A stretch of DNA of 64,000 nt from Ramlibacter sp. (GTDB lineage: Bacteria > Pseudomonadota > Gammaproteobacteria > Burkholderiales > Burkholderiaceae_C): the NCBI GenBank assembly GCA_019449555.1, contig JAGRPN010000363.1:2884-66883 (forward strand), in the 5' to 3' direction. This document shows, in pieces, positions 895 to 64,000 of this stretch. A program made the position numbers and the translations under genes. The notes beneath the pieces are model-generated. The model saw only the letters and a list, made by a program, of their open reading frames with translations, did no database searches and was not told where the DNA came from. Positions within the stretch are counted from its first letter, which is position 1. Every line of letters begins with the position of its first letter.

Positions 895-3033
895 ATGATC
901 TCCCGCGTCCTGTCCGCTGCCTTCCTCGCAGCCACCCTGCTGTCGCCCGCGGCCGCCTCGGCCCAGGGCGCCGCCAGGAGCGTGGTCACCACCGAGCGCG
1001 TGCGAGCCGAGTTGATCGCGCATGCGCCCGACGGCGTGGTGCCCGGCAAGCAGGTCTGGGTCGGCCTGCAACTGACGCACCAGCCGGAATGGCACACCTA
1101 CTGGAAGAATTCCGGCGACTCGGGCCTGCCCACGCAATTGCAGTGGACCCTGCCGCCCGGCGTGCAGGCTGGCGACATCGCGTGGCCGCTGCCCAGGAAG
1201 ATTTTCATCGGCACGCTGGCCAACTACGGCTACGAAGGCACCGTGCTGCTGCCGGTGCCGCTGACGATCACGCCTGACTTCAAGCCGTCGTTGCTGGCCG
1301 GCGACCTGGACGTGAAATTGAAAGCGCAATGGCTGGTCTGCCGCACCGAATGCATTCCGGAAGACGGCGACTTCACGCTGAAGATCCCCGTCCGGAGCAC
1401 CACGGCCGCCAATGGCGCGGCGTTCGACGCGGCCTTCGCGGCGCAGCCGAAACCGTTGCCCGGACCGGGCAAGGTGCAGGTCGAAGGCAATGCGATCAAC
1501 GTCAGCCTGAGCGGCCTCCCGGCCTCCGTGCGTGGCAAGAACCTGGACTTCTTTCCCGAAACGAGCGAGGTCATCGAAACCGCGGCCAAATGGACCCAGG
1601 CCTGGGATGGCGACACCTGGACCGCCCACGTGCCGCTGTCGCCGCAGCGCGCCAACAGCCCGGCGCTGATGCCGCTGGTGGTCGCGCTCGGGAACAACGG
1701 ATGGCGCGCCGAAGCGAAGGTGAGCGGTGAATGGCCGGCCGTCGCGGCCGCCCCGGAGGCGATCTCTCCTGCCCTGCAGGCGGCCCTGCGCGGCGGCGCG
1801 GGCCCAGGCGCACTGGCCGCGCCCGCCACGCCTTCGCTCACGCTGGTCGCGGCGCTGCTCGGCGCCTTGCTCGGCGGGCTCATCCTCAACCTCATGCCGT
1901 GCGTGTTCCCGATCCTCGCCATCAAGGTGGTGGGCTTCACGCGCCACGCCAACGACCGGCGCGGGCATCGCATCGCCGGCATGGCCTACAGCGCCGGCGT
2001 GATCGCCTCGTTCGCCGCGCTGGGCGCTCTGATGCTGGCCCTGCGCGCGGCCGGCGAACAGCTCGGGTGGGGCTTCCAGTTGCAGTCGCCGGTCGTGGTC
2101 GCCGCGCTGGCCGGGCTCTTCACGCTGATCGGCCTGAACCTGGCCGGCCTGTTCGAGTTCGGCACCTTCCTGCCATCGAGTGTCACTTCCCTGGAGGCGC
2201 GCCATCCGGCGGTCAATTCGTTCCTGTCGGGCGTGCTGGCGGTGGCGGTCGCCTCGCCTTGCACGGCGCCGTTCATGGGCGCCTCGCTCGGATTCGCGAT
2301 CGGGCTGCCGGCGATCGACGCGATGATGGTCTTCGTGGCCATCGGCATCGGGATGGCGGTGCCGTACCTGGCCGCCAGCTGGGTCCCGGCGGTCGCTGCG
2401 CTGCTGCCGCGGCCGGGCGCCTGGATGGGCACCTTCCGCCGCTTCATGGCGTTCCCGATGTTCGCCACGGCGGCCTGGCTGGTGTGGGTGCTGGGACAGC
2501 AAAGCGGCATCGACGGGGCCGGGGCGCTGCTGGCGCTGCTGATCGCCATGAGCATGGTGGTGTGGTCGCTCACGCTGCACGGCCGCGCCCGCGCCGTGAT
2601 CGCCACGATCGCGGTCGCTTGCCTGGTGTTGGTGGCCTGGGCCACCGGGCCCAACATCACGCGCTTGCCGGTGCAGCAGGCCGCCGCCGGCGAGGGGCCG
2701 TGGCAACGCTGGGAGCCCGGGCGCGTGGACCAGTTGCTCGCCTCCGGCCAACCGGTGTTCGTGGACTTCACGGCCGCCTGGTGCGTGACCTGCCAGTACA
2801 ACAAGAAGACGACCCTGGAGCAGCCCGACGTGCTGGCCGATTTCGCCGCGAAGAAAATCGCGCTCTTGCGCGCGGACTGGACCCGGCGCGATCCGGCGAT
2901 CACCGCCGCCCTGGCGCAGTTGGGCCGCAACGGCGTGCCGGTGTACGTCGTGTACGCGAAGAACCGGCCCCCGGTCGTGCTGTCCGAAGTGCTGAGCCCC
3001 GACGAGGTGCGTTCGGCGATTGCCCGGCTCTGA
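895..3033 (+). CDS. dsbD: Protein-disulfide reductase DsbD family (N-terminal domain, TM domain, thioredoxin domain)
   Basis: Signal peptide, WHTYWKNSGDSG, TM cysteines in MPCVFP and SPCTAP, C-terminal WCVTC thioredoxin motif. ATG 895 chosen over the GC-shadow extension from 580. Confidence 0.88.
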   Translation: MISRVLSAAFLAATLLSPAAASAQGAARSVVTTERVRAELIAHAPDGVVPGKQVWVGLQLTHQPEWHTYWKNSGDSGLPTQLQWTLPPGVQAGDIAWPLPRKIFIGTLANYGYEGTVLLPVPLTITPDFKPSLLAGDLDVKLKAQWLVCRTECIPEDGDFTLKIPVRSTTAANGAAFDAAFAAQPKPLPGPGKVQVEGNAINVSLSGLPASVRGKNLDFFPETSEVIETAAKWTQAWDGDTWTAHVPLSPQRANSPALMPLVVALGNNGWRAEAKVSGEWPAVAAAPEAISPALQAALRGGAGPGALAAPATPSLTLVAALLGALLGGLILNLMPCVFPILAIKVVGFTRHANDRRGHRIAGMAYSAGVIASFAALGALMLALRAAGEQLGWGFQLQSPVVVAALAGLFTLIGLNLAGLFEFGTFLPSSVTSLEARHPAVNSFLSGVLAVAVASPCTAPFMGASLGFAIGLPAIDAMMVFVAIGIGMAVPYLAASWVPAVAALLPRPGAWMGTFRRFMAFPMFATAAWLVWVLGQQSGIDGAGALLALLIAMSMVVWSLTLHGRARAVIATIAVACLVLVAWATGPNITRLPVQQAAAGEGPWQRWEPGRVDQLLASGQPVFVDFTAAWCVTCQYNKKTTLEQPDVLADFAAKKIALLRADWTRRDPAITAALAQLGRNGVPVYVVYAKNRPPVVLSEVLSPDEVRSAIARL

Positions 3034-3068
3034 CCGGGCGGCGCGCCGGCTTGCGTACACTGGTGCGC

Positions 3069-3560
3069 ATGAACGACATCGCCACCTTGCGCCGCATCCT
3101 GGGCACCTGCAAGACGGTCGCCGTGGTCGGCCTCTCGCCGCAATGGCACCGGCCGAGTTTTTTCGCGGCCAAGTACCTGCAGGCGCACGGCTACCGCATC
3201 GTCCCGGTGAACCCCACCGCCAGTGAAATCCTCGGCGAGCGCTGCTACCCCAGCGTGAGCGCAGCCGCCGCGGCGTTGGGTGCGCGCGGCGAGAAGATCG
3301 ACCTGGTCGATTGCTTTCGCAGGAGCGAGGACATTCCGCCCATCGCCGACGAGGCCATCGCGATCGGCGCGCGCTGCCTGTGGATGCAGATCGGCGTCAT
3401 CGACGAGCAGGCGGCCGCCAAGGCCCGCGACAGCGGCCTGGACGTGGTGATGGACCGGTGCGTGAAGATCGAGCATGCGCGCCTGTTCGGCGGCTTGAAC
3501 TGGGCCGGCGTCAACACCCGCGTGATCTCCTCGCGGCGGCCGCAACACCTGCCCTACTGA
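3069..3560 (+). CDS. CoA-binding protein (YccU-like)
   Basis: VAVVGLS, YRIVPVNP, IDLVDCFRRS, LWMQIGV, VVMDRCVKIEH. Stop overlaps the next start. Confidence 0.85.
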   Translation: MNDIATLRRILGTCKTVAVVGLSPQWHRPSFFAAKYLQAHGYRIVPVNPTASEILGERCYPSVSAAAAALGARGEKIDLVDCFRRSEDIPPIADEAIAIGARCLWMQIGVIDEQAAAKARDSGLDVVMDRCVKIEHARLFGGLNWAGVNTRVISSRRPQHLPY

Positions 3561-4925: not shown

Positions 4926-6131
4926 TCAGGCTGTCCCGACCGCCTGCAGGCACACGTACAGCCCCGGGATCGGCTCGCGCTGGTCCTCCCTGATCGGAGC
5001 CCGCGAGATGGCCTGGATCTCGAAACCATGGCGCAGGGCGAGCGCGCGCAGGTAGCGCTCGGAGTGGGCATAACGCTGGCTGGGCCGCAGCACGAAATCG
5101 CGATCGTCGGGTGCCAGTTCCACCGAAAAGCAGAAGCTGCCGCCCGGCTCCAGCACCCGCGAGACGCCGTCGAATACGTCTTCGAGCGCGCCCACATAGA
5201 TGAACACATCGGCCGACACCACCAGCTCGTAGCGCTGGCGCGTGGTCTCCAGGCAGTGGACGATATCGTCCTGCACCAGCCCCTCGTACAGGCCGAGGCT
5301 TGCTGCTTTCGCCAGCATGTTGGCCGACAGATCGACGCCGTCCAGCACGTCGGCCAGCGGCTTGACCAGCGCAGCGCACAGGCCGGTGCCGCACCCCAGG
5401 TCGAGCGCGCGGGAGAAAGTGCGCCCCAGGCTCGCCAGCTGCGCCGCCAGCACCCGGGGCGCCTGGTAATTCAGCACCTGCACCAGGTGTTCGTCGAACT
5501 TGTCGGCGTAGCCGTCGAACAGGAATTCGACGTACCGCAGGGGCGTTCTGGCGGGCTGCTCGCGCCCGTTCAGGGAGGCGAGGAAATACCGATTCAACTC
5601 GGGGGCGTCGCCGTGGTCGATCGCCTGCTGGAAGGCCGCCGCGGCTTGCTCGAAGCGGCCGAGATCCTTGAGCACGCCGCCGCGGCGGCTCCAGGCCTGG
5701 CCCAGTGCCGGATCACGCGCCAGCGCCGTGTCGTACGACGCCAGCGCCGCCTCGAGGCGCTCCAGCTCCTGCAGCGACTCGCCTTGCAACAGCCATGCTT
5801 TTGCGTCGGCGGGCCGCAACGCCAATACGCGCGACCAGTCGGCCAGCGCATCCTCGTGGCGTCCCAGCATGCCCAGTGCGAGGGCGCGGTGCTGCAGGGC
5901 ATCGACCGCATCGGCTTCCCGCGTCAACGCCTGGTCGAGCACCTGCAGCGCCTCCTGCGCCTTGCCCAGTTTGAGCCGGGTGGCACCGAGATTCGCCAGC
6001 GTGGAGGGACGCCCCGGCAGCAGCGCCAGTGATGCCTCGAATTGCCGCTCCGCCTCGGCGAAGCGGCCGGCCTCATGCAGTCGCACGCCGTCGATGAAGA
6101 GGTCCCGGGCACGTTCGAACGATTCGCTCAT
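4926..6131 (-). CDS. TPR-repeat protein with C-terminal class I SAM-dependent methyltransferase
   Basis: Several TPR-like helical repeats, then [14 protein letters not shown] and the [11 protein letters not shown] motif. Confidence 0.8.
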
Positions 6132-6199
6132 GGGGATCGATTGTGCGGTCAGCAGCGGGCCCGGTTCCGCCGCTGCGGCTGGCTGCGACAATGGAGGCC

Positions 6200-61432: not shown

Positions 61433-61446
61433 TTGAGGCAGATCAA
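61433..61446 (+). promoter_or_regulatory. FNR/Anr box upstream of nrdD
   Basis: TTGAG-GCAG-ATCAA, 1 mismatch to TTGAT-N4-ATCAA. TACTCT -10 candidate at 61470-61475 fits class II spacing. Confidence 0.7.
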
Positions 61447-61493
61447 CACTACATCTGGGGTCTATCGCCTACTCTAAACGCTACATATAGCGT
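61446..61493 (+). promoter_or_regulatory. Tandem NrdR boxes
   Basis: ACACTACATCTGGGGT (61446-61461) and ACGCTACATATAGCGT (61478-61493), 32 bp apart. Confidence 0.8.
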
Positions 61494-61509: not shown

Positions 61510-63576
61510 ATGTCCCATCCCTTTCCGACCACGACGCTGCCGGCCCAGGTCGTCAAGCGGGGCGGCGAGCGCGTGCGCTTCGACGCCGGCAAGATCGAAG
61601 CGGCGCTGGAGCGTGCCGGCAGCGCGACCGGCGAGTTCGGCGCCGACGAAGCGGCCCTGCTCACCGCGATGGCCGTCAAGGTGCTGGCCTGGCGCTTCGC
61701 CGGCCAGGCCCCGGCGATCGAGCAGATCCAGGACGTGGTCGAGCAGACGCTGATCGCGGCCAACCACCTCAAGACCGCGCGCGCCTACATCGTCTATCGC
61801 GAGCAGCACGCCCGGCTGCGCCAGGACAGCAAGACGCTGGTCGACGTCGAAGCGTCGATCAACGAATACCTCACCCGCGCCGACTGGCGCGTGAACGCCA
61901 ACGCCAACCAGGGCTACTCGCTGGGCGGGCTGATCCTCAACGTGGCGGGCAAGGTGACGGCCAATTACTGGCTGTCGCACGTGTACTCGCCCGAGATCGG
62001 CGAGGCGCACCGCAGCGGCGACATCCACATCCACGACCTCGACATGCTGAGCGGCTACTGCGCCGGCTGGTCGCTGCGCACGCTCCTGCACGAAGGATTG
62101 AACGGCGTGCCGGGCAAGGTGGAAGCCGGGCCGCCGAACCACATGTCGTCGGCCGTGGGGCAGATCGTGAATTTCCTGGGCACGTTGCAGAACGAGTGGG
62201 CCGGCGCGCAGGCGTTCTCGTCCTTCGACACCTACATGGCGCCGTTCGTGCGCAAGGACGGCATGGCGTACCGCGAGGTGCGCCAGTGCATGCAGGAGCT
62301 GGTCTACAACCTGAACGTGCCCTCGCGCTGGGGCACGCAGACGCCCTTCACCAACCTGACTTTCGACTGGACCTGCCCGGACGACCTGCGCGAGCAGGTG
62401 CCCGTGATCGGCGGGCGCGAGATGCCGTTCATGTACGGCGAGCTGCAGGCCGAGATGGACATGATCAATCGCGCCTACATCGAGGTCATGACCACGGGCG
62501 ACGCGAAGGGGCGCGTGTTCACCTTCCCGATCCCCACCTACAACATCACGCGCGACTTTCCGTGGGAGTCGGAGAACGCAAACTTGCTGTTCGAGATGAC
62601 GGCCAAGTATGGGCTGCCGTACTTCCAGAATTTCGTGAACTCCGAGCTGGAACCCAACATGGTCCGCTCGATGTGCTGCCGCCTGCAGCTGGACCTGCGC
62701 GAACTGCTCAAACGCGGCAACGGCCTGTTCGGCAGCGCGGAGCAGACCGGCAGCATCGGCGTCGTCACGGTCAACTGCGCGCGCCTGGGCCACCTGCACC
62801 GCGGCCGCGAGACCGACCTGCTGCGCGCGCTCGATGCGCTGCTCGAGATCGGCAAGCGCAGCCTGGAGGTCAAGCGCAAACTGATCCAGCGCCTGATGGA
62901 CCAGGGCCTGTTTCCGTACACCAAGCGCTATCTCGGCACGCTGCGCAACCACTTCTCGACGCTCGGGGTGAATGGGCTGAACGAGATGGTGCGCAATTTC
63001 AGCGGCGACGCCGACGACATCACGACCGAACGCGGTCACGCGCTCGCCCTGCGGCTGCTCGATCGCGTACGCGAACGCATCGTCGCGTTCCAGGAAGAAA
63101 CCGGGCACCTGTACAACCTGGAGGCGACGCCGGCCGAGGGCACGACCTATCGCTTCGCGCGCGAGGACCGCAAGCGCTGGCCGCAGATCCTGCAGGCCGG
63201 CAGCGCCGACAAGCCGTACTACACGAACTCGTCGCAACTGCCGGTCGGCTTCACCGACGACCCGTTCGAGGCGCTGGAACGGCAGGAACCGCTGCAATCG
63301 AAGTACACGGGCGGCACCGTGCTGCACCTGTACATGGGCGAGCGCCTGTCCAGCGGCGCGGCGTGCCGCGAGCTGGTGCGCCGCGCATTGACGCGTTTCC
63401 GCCTGCCCTACATCACCATCACGCCGACGTTCTCGATCTGCCCGACGCACGGCTATCTCGCCGGGGAACATGCGTTCTGCCCGAAGTGCGACGAGGCGCT
63501 GCTCGAACGCAAGCGCCAGGCGCTCGCTTCCCAGCATCCCATTGCCAACCCATTGCCCGAGGAGACTGCACGATGA
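61510..63576 (+). CDS. nrdD: Class III (anaerobic) ribonucleoside-triphosphate reductase, catalytic chain lacking the glycyl-radical C-terminus
   Basis: ATP cone (VVKRGG), HIHDL, GYCAGWS, SMCCRL, NLEATPAEG, terminal CPTHG...CPKC. No RxxGY motif. Confidence 0.93.
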   Translation: MSHPFPTTTLPAQVVKRGGERVRFDAGKIEAALERAGSATGEFGADEAALLTAMAVKVLAWRFAGQAPAIEQIQDVVEQTLIAANHLKTARAYIVYREQHARLRQDSKTLVDVEASINEYLTRADWRVNANANQGYSLGGLILNVAGKVTANYWLSHVYSPEIGEAHRSGDIHIHDLDMLSGYCAGWSLRTLLHEGLNGVPGKVEAGPPNHMSSAVGQIVNFLGTLQNEWAGAQAFSSFDTYMAPFVRKDGMAYREVRQCMQELVYNLNVPSRWGTQTPFTNLTFDWTCPDDLREQVPVIGGREMPFMYGELQAEMDMINRAYIEVMTTGDAKGRVFTFPIPTYNITRDFPWESENANLLFEMTAKYGLPYFQNFVNSELEPNMVRSMCCRLQLDLRELLKRGNGLFGSAEQTGSIGVVTVNCARLGHLHRGRETDLLRALDALLEIGKRSLEVKRKLIQRLMDQGLFPYTKRYLGTLRNHFSTLGVNGLNEMVRNFSGDADDITTERGHALALRLLDRVRERIVAFQEETGHLYNLEATPAEGTTYRFAREDRKRWPQILQAGSADKPYYTNSSQLPVGFTDDPFEALERQEPLQSKYTGGTVLHLYMGERLSSGAACRELVRRALTRFRLPYITITPTFSICPTHGYLAGEHAFCPKCDEALLERKRQALASQHPIANPLPEETAR

Positions 63577-63776
63577 CACATGACACCGCACCGGAAATCG
63601 CGATAGCCGAGCGCGCGGCGGCCGAGCCGCAACTGCGCGACGAGGAGCGCCAGCCTTGCGAAGTGTGGACGCGCGTGATGGGCTACCACCGCCCGGTGTC
63701 CAGCTTCAACATCGGCAAGCAGGGCGAGCACGGCGAGCGCCGCTTCTTTTGCGAGGCCGCGCTGCCGGGCCGGTGA
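63573..63776 (+). CDS. Stand-alone NrdD glycyl-radical domain protein (67 aa)
   Basis: [37 protein letters not shown] at 63559-63564, ATGA overlap with nrdD stop, GTGA overlap with nrdG start. Confidence 0.85.
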
Positions 63777-64000
63777 CCGCCCCGTTGCGGGTGGCCGGCC
63801 TGACGCCGCTGACCACCATCGACTTTCCGGGGCGGCTGGCGGCGGTCGTGTTCCTGCAAGGCTGCCCGTGGCACTGCGGCTATTGCCACAACCCCGGCCT
63901 GATCGCCGCCGATGCTGCGCCTGCCATGCCATGGCAGCAGGTCCGCGCGTTCCTGCAGCGACGCCGCGGCCTGCTCGATGGCGTGGTGTTCTCGGGCGGC
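63773..64000 (+). CDS. nrdG: Anaerobic RNR activating radical SAM enzyme (5' part, runs off the window)
   Basis: [33 protein letters not shown] with CxxxCxxC motif. Confidence 0.9.

Follow-up and report, generated by a model that had tools for sequence, protein, structure and literature searches.

A probable two-chain class III ribonucleotide reductase: the glycyl-radical loop of Ramlibacter NrdD is predicted to lie on a separate, conserved 67-residue protein

Where would a class III ribonucleotide reductase (RNR) carry its radical if the catalytic chain ended before its glycyl-radical loop? The question is raised by a 64,000-nucleotide stretch of Ramlibacter sp. DNA (GenBank assembly GCA_019449555.1, contig JAGRPN010000363.1, positions 2,884 to 66,883 of the forward strand; hereafter the window), at the end of which an nrdD gene, a very small open reading frame (ORF) and the start of nrdG follow one another. 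An initial annotation, made from the sequence alone, had noticed that the nrdD product stops short of its radical motif and had proposed that the small ORF supplies the motif as a separate and exchangeable subunit. The evidence assembled here favors the reading that the locus encodes a functional class III RNR made of two polypeptides, a real and conserved two-chain variant of a known enzyme, and we place the probability of this reading at about 0.85. The anatomy of the two genes can be read directly from the DNA:

61510 to 63576, plus strand: nrdD large chain, from ATG at 61510 to TGA at 63574-63576; 688 residues, 77.2 kDa.
63559 to 63564, plus strand: Shine-Dalgarno sequence GAGGAG serving the small gene, within the last part of nrdD and 8 nt before the small-gene ATG.
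63573 to 63776, plus strand: NrdD small chain; 67 residues, 7.6 kDa, in the -1 frame relative to nrdD.
63681 to 63683, plus strand: GGC codon of Gly37, the predicted glycyl-radical residue in RVMGY, at the position of the radical glycine in the family profile and of Gly712 in the read-through model described below.

The large chain is preceded by GAGGAG 9 nt before the ATG at 61510, with an alternative in-frame GTG at 61492. It matches the Pfam ATP-cone (68.7 bits) and NRDD (PF13597; 579 bits, profile positions 2-529 of 562), both above the curated cut-offs, and NCBIfam NF006126 with 1127 bits against a cut-off of 548 (profile positions 3-660 of 684). It also has the ten-stranded barrel, and its MCCR finger loop, at residues 388-391 (nt 62671-62682), is of the double-cysteine type with methionine described in PMC9669993. 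A predicted zinc ribbon, CPTHG..CPKC (CPTHGYLAGEHAFCPKC), occupies residues 644-660 (nt 63439-63489) and is followed by a 28-residue tail and the stop codon. The 688-residue chain, read over its whole length, holds no RxxGY glycyl-radical motif, in keeping with profile matches that end at 529 of 562 and at 660 of 684. The initial description of an NrdD with ATP-cone, MCCR and terminal CPTHG..CPKC but without RxxGY is therefore borne out by the sequence and by the Pfam and NCBIfam matches.

The small ORF takes up where the large one ends. Its ATG overlaps the nrdD stop codon (ATGA, 4 nt), and its own stop, TGA at 63774-63776, overlaps the GTG at 63773 of nrdG (GTGA); the earlier account of a 67-residue, -1-frame ORF with its own GAGGAG ribosome-binding site and two such overlaps proved accurate in every detail. 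Its product matches Pfam NRDD at profile positions 531-562 of 562, with 30.4 bits against a cut-off of 26.2, and NF006126 at positions 649-681 of 684. Jointly, the large and small ORFs span the NrdD family profiles end to end. Searches of the small ORF found no Pfam family besides NRDD down to E = 0.1, the pyruvate formate-lyase (PFL)-type Gly_radical family included, and a phmmer search of PDB sequences with the small chain gave no match.

The rest of the genome defines the role of the small chain. In the Ramlibacter assembly, a 458-contig draft that is 96% complete, there is only one NRDD barrel, which lacks the loop, and only one small gene, besides three matches to the class I/II RNR large-subunit domain. 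Because the only NrdD of the genome is without a radical loop, the small chain is here a regular, obligatory subunit and the only radical carrier, not a spare. The proposal of an exchangeable separate radical subunit thus holds for the separate, conserved gene but not for the notion of a spare.

A search of 5.8 billion proteins returned 5255 small proteins with a match to the NRDD C-terminus, so that similar small ORFs do exist in databases, as had been anticipated, and no biochemical description of them was found in the literature searched. The best 120 of these homologues are 59-108 residues long, nearly all below 77; their N-terminal 20 or so residues are variable, and the core that begins with leucine is essentially invariant (about 100%). 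Synonymous codon changes occur across the invariant residues.

Within this core, Cys29 (63657-63659), 8 residues ahead of the radical glycine, is invariant in the clade formed by split and long-linker sequences. In short-linker contiguous NrdDs, cysteine is common at this position but not universal (CEVYSR or TEVYSR). A role for Cys29 as a fourth zinc ligand bridging the two chains was considered and is not claimed; the CxxH..CxxC of the large chain is already comparable to the four-ligand site of Thermotoga maritima NrdD.

Conservation of the split was surveyed in species-representative genomes, among which 525 relatives of the small protein were found; the 80 best named loci were analysed. 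A large nrdD lies directly upstream of the small gene in 76 of the 80, and none is fused; the split is kept in many genera. Split loci were seen in Sulfuricella, Massilia, Rhodoferax, Herbaspirillum, Achromobacter, Castellaniella and Advenella, and further ones in Paraburkholderia nodosa, Sutterella and a Hyphomicrobiales metagenome-assembled genome (MAG). The 76 loci come from independent assemblies, complete genomes among them, and the reading frames of their two genes are independent: relative to nrdD the small ORF lies in frame 0 in 32, +1 in 21 and +2 in 23. The nrdD stop codon is TGA in 43, TAA in 20 and TAG in 13, the gap between the genes runs from -8 to +280 nt (median 33), and a Shine-Dalgarno sequence with ATG precedes the small ORF in all but two. 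The ATGA junction recurs identically in one relative of the same genus, another has a spacer of about 40 nt, and gaps vary elsewhere over the range just given.

Within the Burkholderiales, NF006126 found matches over its cut-off in 76 of 301 genomes. Five of these matches reach profile position 681-682 without a stop, and the 3 that were fetched are all contiguous; 6 more have one in-frame stop and extend past it to position 682. The remainder mostly end at about 650-672, and a few are fragments at contig ends. The small gene also occurs, by tblastn, in 161 plasmid records (Ralstonia 132, Bradyrhizobium 7, Cupriavidus 5, Paracoccus 4, and others), and in database records it is often unannotated or labelled hypothetical. 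The predicted two-piece NrdD is common to hundreds of other bacteria, Cupriavidus necator H16 included. On one Sutterella contig (L178) the small gene stands alone, the 3 kb upstream of it lacking nrdD; contamination of the bin is a possible cause.

The C. necator locus is of particular value in linking this gene arrangement to a phenotype. On megaplasmid pHG1 of strain H16 (NC_005241), a large gene annotated as ‘ribonucleoside triphosphate reductase’, with a product ending CPRCDEEILARKRDQLAA, is followed by a 142-nt spacer, by a 66-residue ‘nrdD’ entered as a separate coding sequence, and then by nrdG. The small gene is present in two independent complete pHG1 sequences and in a third C. necator plasmid record. 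The H16 and Ramlibacter loci share the three genes, the break point after CPxCDEE..K, and a small chain that is 92.7% identical over the matched part (query residues 21-61); they differ in the junction, a 142-nt spacer there and a 4-nt overlap in the window. The genome paper of Cupriavidus metallidurans CH34 cites Siedow et al. 1999 for the H16 locus being essential for complete denitrification, and the genetics that it cites tie the locus to anaerobic growth. That paper lists the CH34 genes as Rmet_5137 and Rmet_5139, omitting 5138. Because the pHG1 locus is split and is cited as needed for denitrification, the two-piece layout belongs to a system reported to be functional in vivo.

How the division arose is suggested by relatives that lack it. 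A HMMER search with the large chain gave 150 best cluster representatives at 50% identity, 133 of which have a recognisable C-terminal region; in 75 of the 133 the chain stops past the zinc ribbon and lacks a radical loop, the other 58 being contiguous, although some of the ‘split’ labels may be truncated gene calls. A FastTree phylogeny was computed from barrel columns only, leaving out the region of the break, for the 123 of 133 sequences that cover at least 70% of the columns (66 split, 57 fused), and was midpoint-rooted. The two states are clustered but interleaved on this tree: Fitch parsimony requires at least 19 changes between split and fused over the 123 leaves, against 40.9 ± 2.9 with shuffled labels.

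To trace the linker itself, a relative interrupted by just one in-frame TAG was read through, and its region from zinc ribbon to C-terminus, used as query, gave 2578 matches. C-terminal tails could be parsed for 114 of the best 120, and all 114 are contiguous NrdDs, in which 13-59 residues (median 29) separate the CxxC from the radical glycine. Among these proteins are those of a Chlamydiae MAG, Cohaesibacter, Maricaulis, Teredinibacter and a Verrucomicrobiota MAG, and the contiguous NrdDs displayed share the flanking signatures CPxCDxEL..K and the motif that begins with leucine. Because an unbroken linker exists at the same place in relatives, and because the states have changed repeatedly, the split is best read as the interruption of a tether, long, variable and probably flexible, that joins zinc ribbon and radical loop. 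A break in such a tether could therefore be gained and lost repeatedly.

Several relatives show other departures from the simple one-chain plan. Many of the closest NrdD representatives (P0124-P0273) are 1000-1900 residues long and are matched by the query in 2-5 stretches, which suggests inteins in the barrel. An extra C-terminal CPxC domain, glutaredoxin/NrdH-like, is seen in the contiguous proteins P0139, P0142, P0149, P0163, P0171, P0194, P0224, P0233 and P0244. The last of these runs on into a sequence like that of NrdG, of the radical S-adenosylmethionine (SAM) type, in an apparent NrdD-NrdG fusion. P0278, from a Chlamydiae MAG, is a contiguous NrdD with a tandem duplication of lead-in and radical motif.

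The placement of the radical loop was examined in an AlphaFold2 model. Because the two ORFs of the window differ by a -1 frame, a natural in-frame relative was folded instead, read through its single TAG and aligned with 113 contiguous homologues. The model has a mean predicted local distance difference test (pLDDT) score of 88.8 and a predicted template-modelling (TM) score of 0.86. The zinc ribbon leads into a helix (residues 661-681) that, by the prediction, spans the junction; the lowest-scoring block of the C-terminal part, with pLDDT 69, consists of the first ten residues of the small chain. Beyond it come the conserved lead-in, a hairpin at 705-716 around Gly712 and a helix at 722-730, in blocks of pLDDT 88-94. 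In comparisons of the model with solved class III RNRs (Prevotella copri, Streptococcus thermophilus, T. maritima and phage T4), TM-scores reach about 0.75 when the target is used for normalisation. The model supports a canonical docking of the radical loop.

A two-chain enzyme of this kind may be pictured as follows. The 77-kDa chain would contribute the allosteric ATP-cone, the catalytic barrel with its MCCR finger loop, and the zinc ribbon; the 7.6-kDa chain would contribute the glycyl-radical loop and the short helix after it. The small chain would dock its β-hairpin into the barrel, with Gly37 facing the finger-loop cysteine as in one-piece enzymes, and NrdG would install the radical on Gly37. 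According to the structural literature, the radical glycine of class III enzymes lies wholly buried, and it can meet the activase only by swinging outward together with the C-terminal domain. In the split enzyme, this moving C-terminal part is a separate chain.

Two points weigh against the two-chain reading. The protein, the complex and the radical are predictions from sequence in all organisms with the split layout, and the AlphaFold2 model represents a single read-through chain of a relative rather than a two-chain prediction of the window proteins.

Comparison with known systems places the Ramlibacter enzyme close to one-piece NrdD/NrdG, as represented by phage T4 (1H7A), T. maritima (4COI/4U3E), P. 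copri (8P23) and Escherichia coli. The domain order is the same (ATP-cone, barrel, finger-loop cysteine, zinc ribbon, RVxGY loop and C-terminal helix), the activase gene adjoins, and the zinc motif CxxH..CxxC of the window resembles the CxxxHx6CxxC of T. maritima NrdD. The window chain differs in ending 28 residues past the zinc ribbon, with the loop in a gene of its own that has its own Shine-Dalgarno sequence and ATG; some 50 extra, poorly conserved residues flank the break in the split form. GrcA/YfiD, which serves PFL in E. coli, is likewise a small free-standing glycyl-radical-loop protein with a variable or disordered N-terminus and a conserved C-terminal module, and in both systems activation and insertion in trans are possible in principle. 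The small chain, however, belongs to Pfam NRDD and not to the PFL-type Gly_radical family, and whereas GrcA backs up a complete PFL, the large chain here has no loop of its own and the small chain is primary.

Other RNRs are divided as well. The split class II enzyme NrdJa/NrdJb of Pseudomonas aeruginosa (Crona et al. 2015, cited in PMC9669993) is also encoded by two consecutive ORFs, with C-terminal accessory domains on the second chain and no intervening mobile element, but it uses adenosylcobalamin, and its NrdJb, as described there, is large, with domains of IscU-like and zinc-finger type and no radical site. Phage RNR genes are split by introns, inteins and homing endonucleases, as in T4 nrdB and nrdA of Aeromonas phage Aeh1 (PMC3653736). 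There, too, an RNR gene in pieces still yields an active enzyme, but those genes are often healed by splicing, whereas here the two products would stay separate. No mobile element lies between the nrdD pieces, which overlap by 4 nt in the window and in relatives are separated by spacers (-8 to +280 nt) too short to hold one. The family-wide RNR survey in PMC9669993 places the class III radical domain at the C-terminus and takes up split genes in class II only, for NrdJa/NrdJb. The literature searched gave no account of a class III RNR with two chains or of a separate glycyl-radical subunit, and yielded only phage intron and endonuclease splits, split class II NrdJ, and GrcA. Databases already annotate the split NrdD in pieces, but no printed description was found as far as the search went.

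The most durable of the other proposals extends the two-chain reading and does not exclude it. In this scheme the small chain would be a radical cartridge: after its cleavage at Gly37 by O2 or nitric oxide the fragments would depart, a fresh copy would dock, and the 77-kDa body would be reused. NrdG would activate the fresh copy on or off the enzyme, and phages would supply the cartridge to sustain synthesis of deoxyribonucleoside triphosphates (dNTPs) in hosts with the two-piece enzyme. We regard the scheme as possible but unlikely. Its precedent is cleavage of glycyl-radical enzymes by O2 at the radical site and the rescue of PFL by GrcA/YfiD (PMC13450708). Discarding a 7-kDa piece after O2 damage would be physically reasonable, with exchange, rescue and stoichiometry all hypothetical. 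The host genome, moreover, is that of a facultative organism, with class I/II RNR genes and NrdR present.

Viral copies of the small gene bear on such exchange. A tblastn search of deposited phage genomes (INPHARED) with the small protein gave no match, and in IMG/VR a relative of the small chain is encoded on 248 viral contigs. In 75 of the best 80 viral loci, neither nrdD nor nrdG is present within 6 kb, and in 79 of them the small ORF is open, with 49-131 residues (about 350 where the frame is open far upstream); the shortest forms, of 49 residues, start just before SERQxCEVW. At locus L093 the gene (6001-6123) is immediately preceded by the portal gene, with terminase further upstream and head protease and major head genes downstream, and at L028 it (6001-6138) follows the tape-measure gene; in both, the small gene sits inside phage structural modules. 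A phage benefits only if the product plugs into the large chain of its host. The solitary phage copies thus favor a module acting in trans and lend some support to the idea of an exchangeable part. A cellular case of the same kind may be MAG JANYAU01, which has a second, unlinked small gene with its own Shine-Dalgarno sequence (L173, about 3000-3186, beside the nrdD-linked locus L156), unless the bin is contaminated. In three viral versions (L069, L070 and L093) the N-terminus is extended by a cysteine-rich stretch, perhaps a zinc ribbon belonging to the viral protein itself.

Against the cartridge stand the single and obligatory small gene of this genome, the common occurrence of fused long-linker relatives, and the at least 19 changes of state on the 123-leaf tree, which are as expected for a near-neutral break. 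Indeed, the repeated changes and the long-linker forms would fit such a break equally well. Nor is the split limited to facultative aerobes: it is found, too, in two loci labelled Sutterella, one labelled uncultured Coriobacteriia and one labelled Bacteroidaceae, all from metagenome bins; these groups are gut anaerobes. For the earlier suggestion that the split could be a design for oxygen tolerance, the evidence is thus mixed. If true, the cartridge would give glycyl-radical enzymes other than PFL their first spare-part system.

Three further alternatives would deny a two-chain enzyme altogether. Decay of the system, leaving a truncated and inactive NrdD with a leftover fragment, is conceivable in a genome in which other RNR classes could cover the dNTP supply. 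Both chains and nrdG are intact, however, the core of the small chain stays invariant while synonymous sites vary, and the same layout in C. necator H16 is reported as needed for denitrifying growth; decay is accordingly very improbable.

Programmed recoding, by -1 frameshift or by read-through, would produce a single fused protein, and the small ORF would not be translated alone. The -1 frame of the small ORF and its overlap with the nrdD stop invite this idea, as do relatives that are in frame across a single stop. In the window, no X-XXY-YYZ slippery heptamer precedes the nrdD stop (CCCGAGGAGACTGCACGATGA), and nearly every small ORF among the relatives has a Shine-Dalgarno sequence and ATG before it. 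Among the relatives every frame and every stop codon occurs, with spacers of up to 280 nt, a variety that no single recoding mechanism fits, and we reject recoding as scarcely credible.

Least probable of all is a sequencing or assembly indel in what is truly one contiguous nrdD, an idea encouraged by the 458-contig draft and by frames that differ by one base but ruled out by the comparative data: a congeneric relative with the same ATGA junction and another with a spacer of about 40 nt, splits in all three frames in 76 independent assemblies that include complete genomes, and the small gene in three C. necator plasmid records (two of them independent pHG1 sequences), as a separate coding sequence in NC_005241.

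The features neighboring the two genes are:

63773 to 64000, plus strand: 5' part of nrdG, the radical-SAM activase, with CxxxCxxC (CPWHCGYC); the gene leaves the window.
61433 to 61446, plus strand: FNR/Anr-type box TTGAGGCAGATCAA, one mismatch from TTGAT-N4-ATCAA; the nrdD ATG follows about 70 nt downstream.
61446 to 61461, plus strand: weaker NrdR-box-like sequence ACACTACATCTGGGGT, 32 bp upstream of the strong box, read from the sequence.
61478 to 61493, plus strand: NrdR-box-like palindrome ACGCTACATATAGCGT, the stronger box, a match to ACACTATATATAGTGT.

From its GTG at 63773, the nrdG frame matches TIGR02495 (NrdG2) with E = 3.5e-25, starting at profile position 2, and on the genome contig the full gene encodes 224 residues (ORF at 1701-2375 of the fetched locus L001). 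Upstream of nrdD, ACGCTACATATAGCGT is the sole match in the window to ACACTATATATAGTGT at no more than 3 mismatches, with 0 expected from 100 shuffles. NrdR operators are tandem boxes spaced about 32 bp apart, and an NrdR gene is encoded elsewhere in the genome. FNR-type boxes match 3 times in the window against 0.41 expected, and the box upstream of nrdD may serve anaerobic induction. By their ATGA and GTGA overlaps, nrdD, the small gene and nrdG are predicted to be translationally coupled, and the three genes probably stand behind an FNR-type and NrdR-controlled promoter.

Reviews and family surveys place the class III radical domain at the C-terminus of the catalytic chain, yet about half of the closest cluster representatives lack that domain, and the missing piece of NrdD is a conserved small gene. 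For annotation, the consequence is that the large gene alone has been taken for a complete NrdD. A 2026 review (PMC13450708) describes it as still undetermined whether replaceable radical parts exist in glycyl-radical enzymes besides PFL; the split NrdD lets that question be asked outside PFL, and C. necator H16, Ralstonia and Bradyrhizobium are genetically tractable hosts that have it. More broadly, the split NrdD is a natural system in which to ask how the activase reaches a buried glycine and whether a radical loop can be installed in trans.

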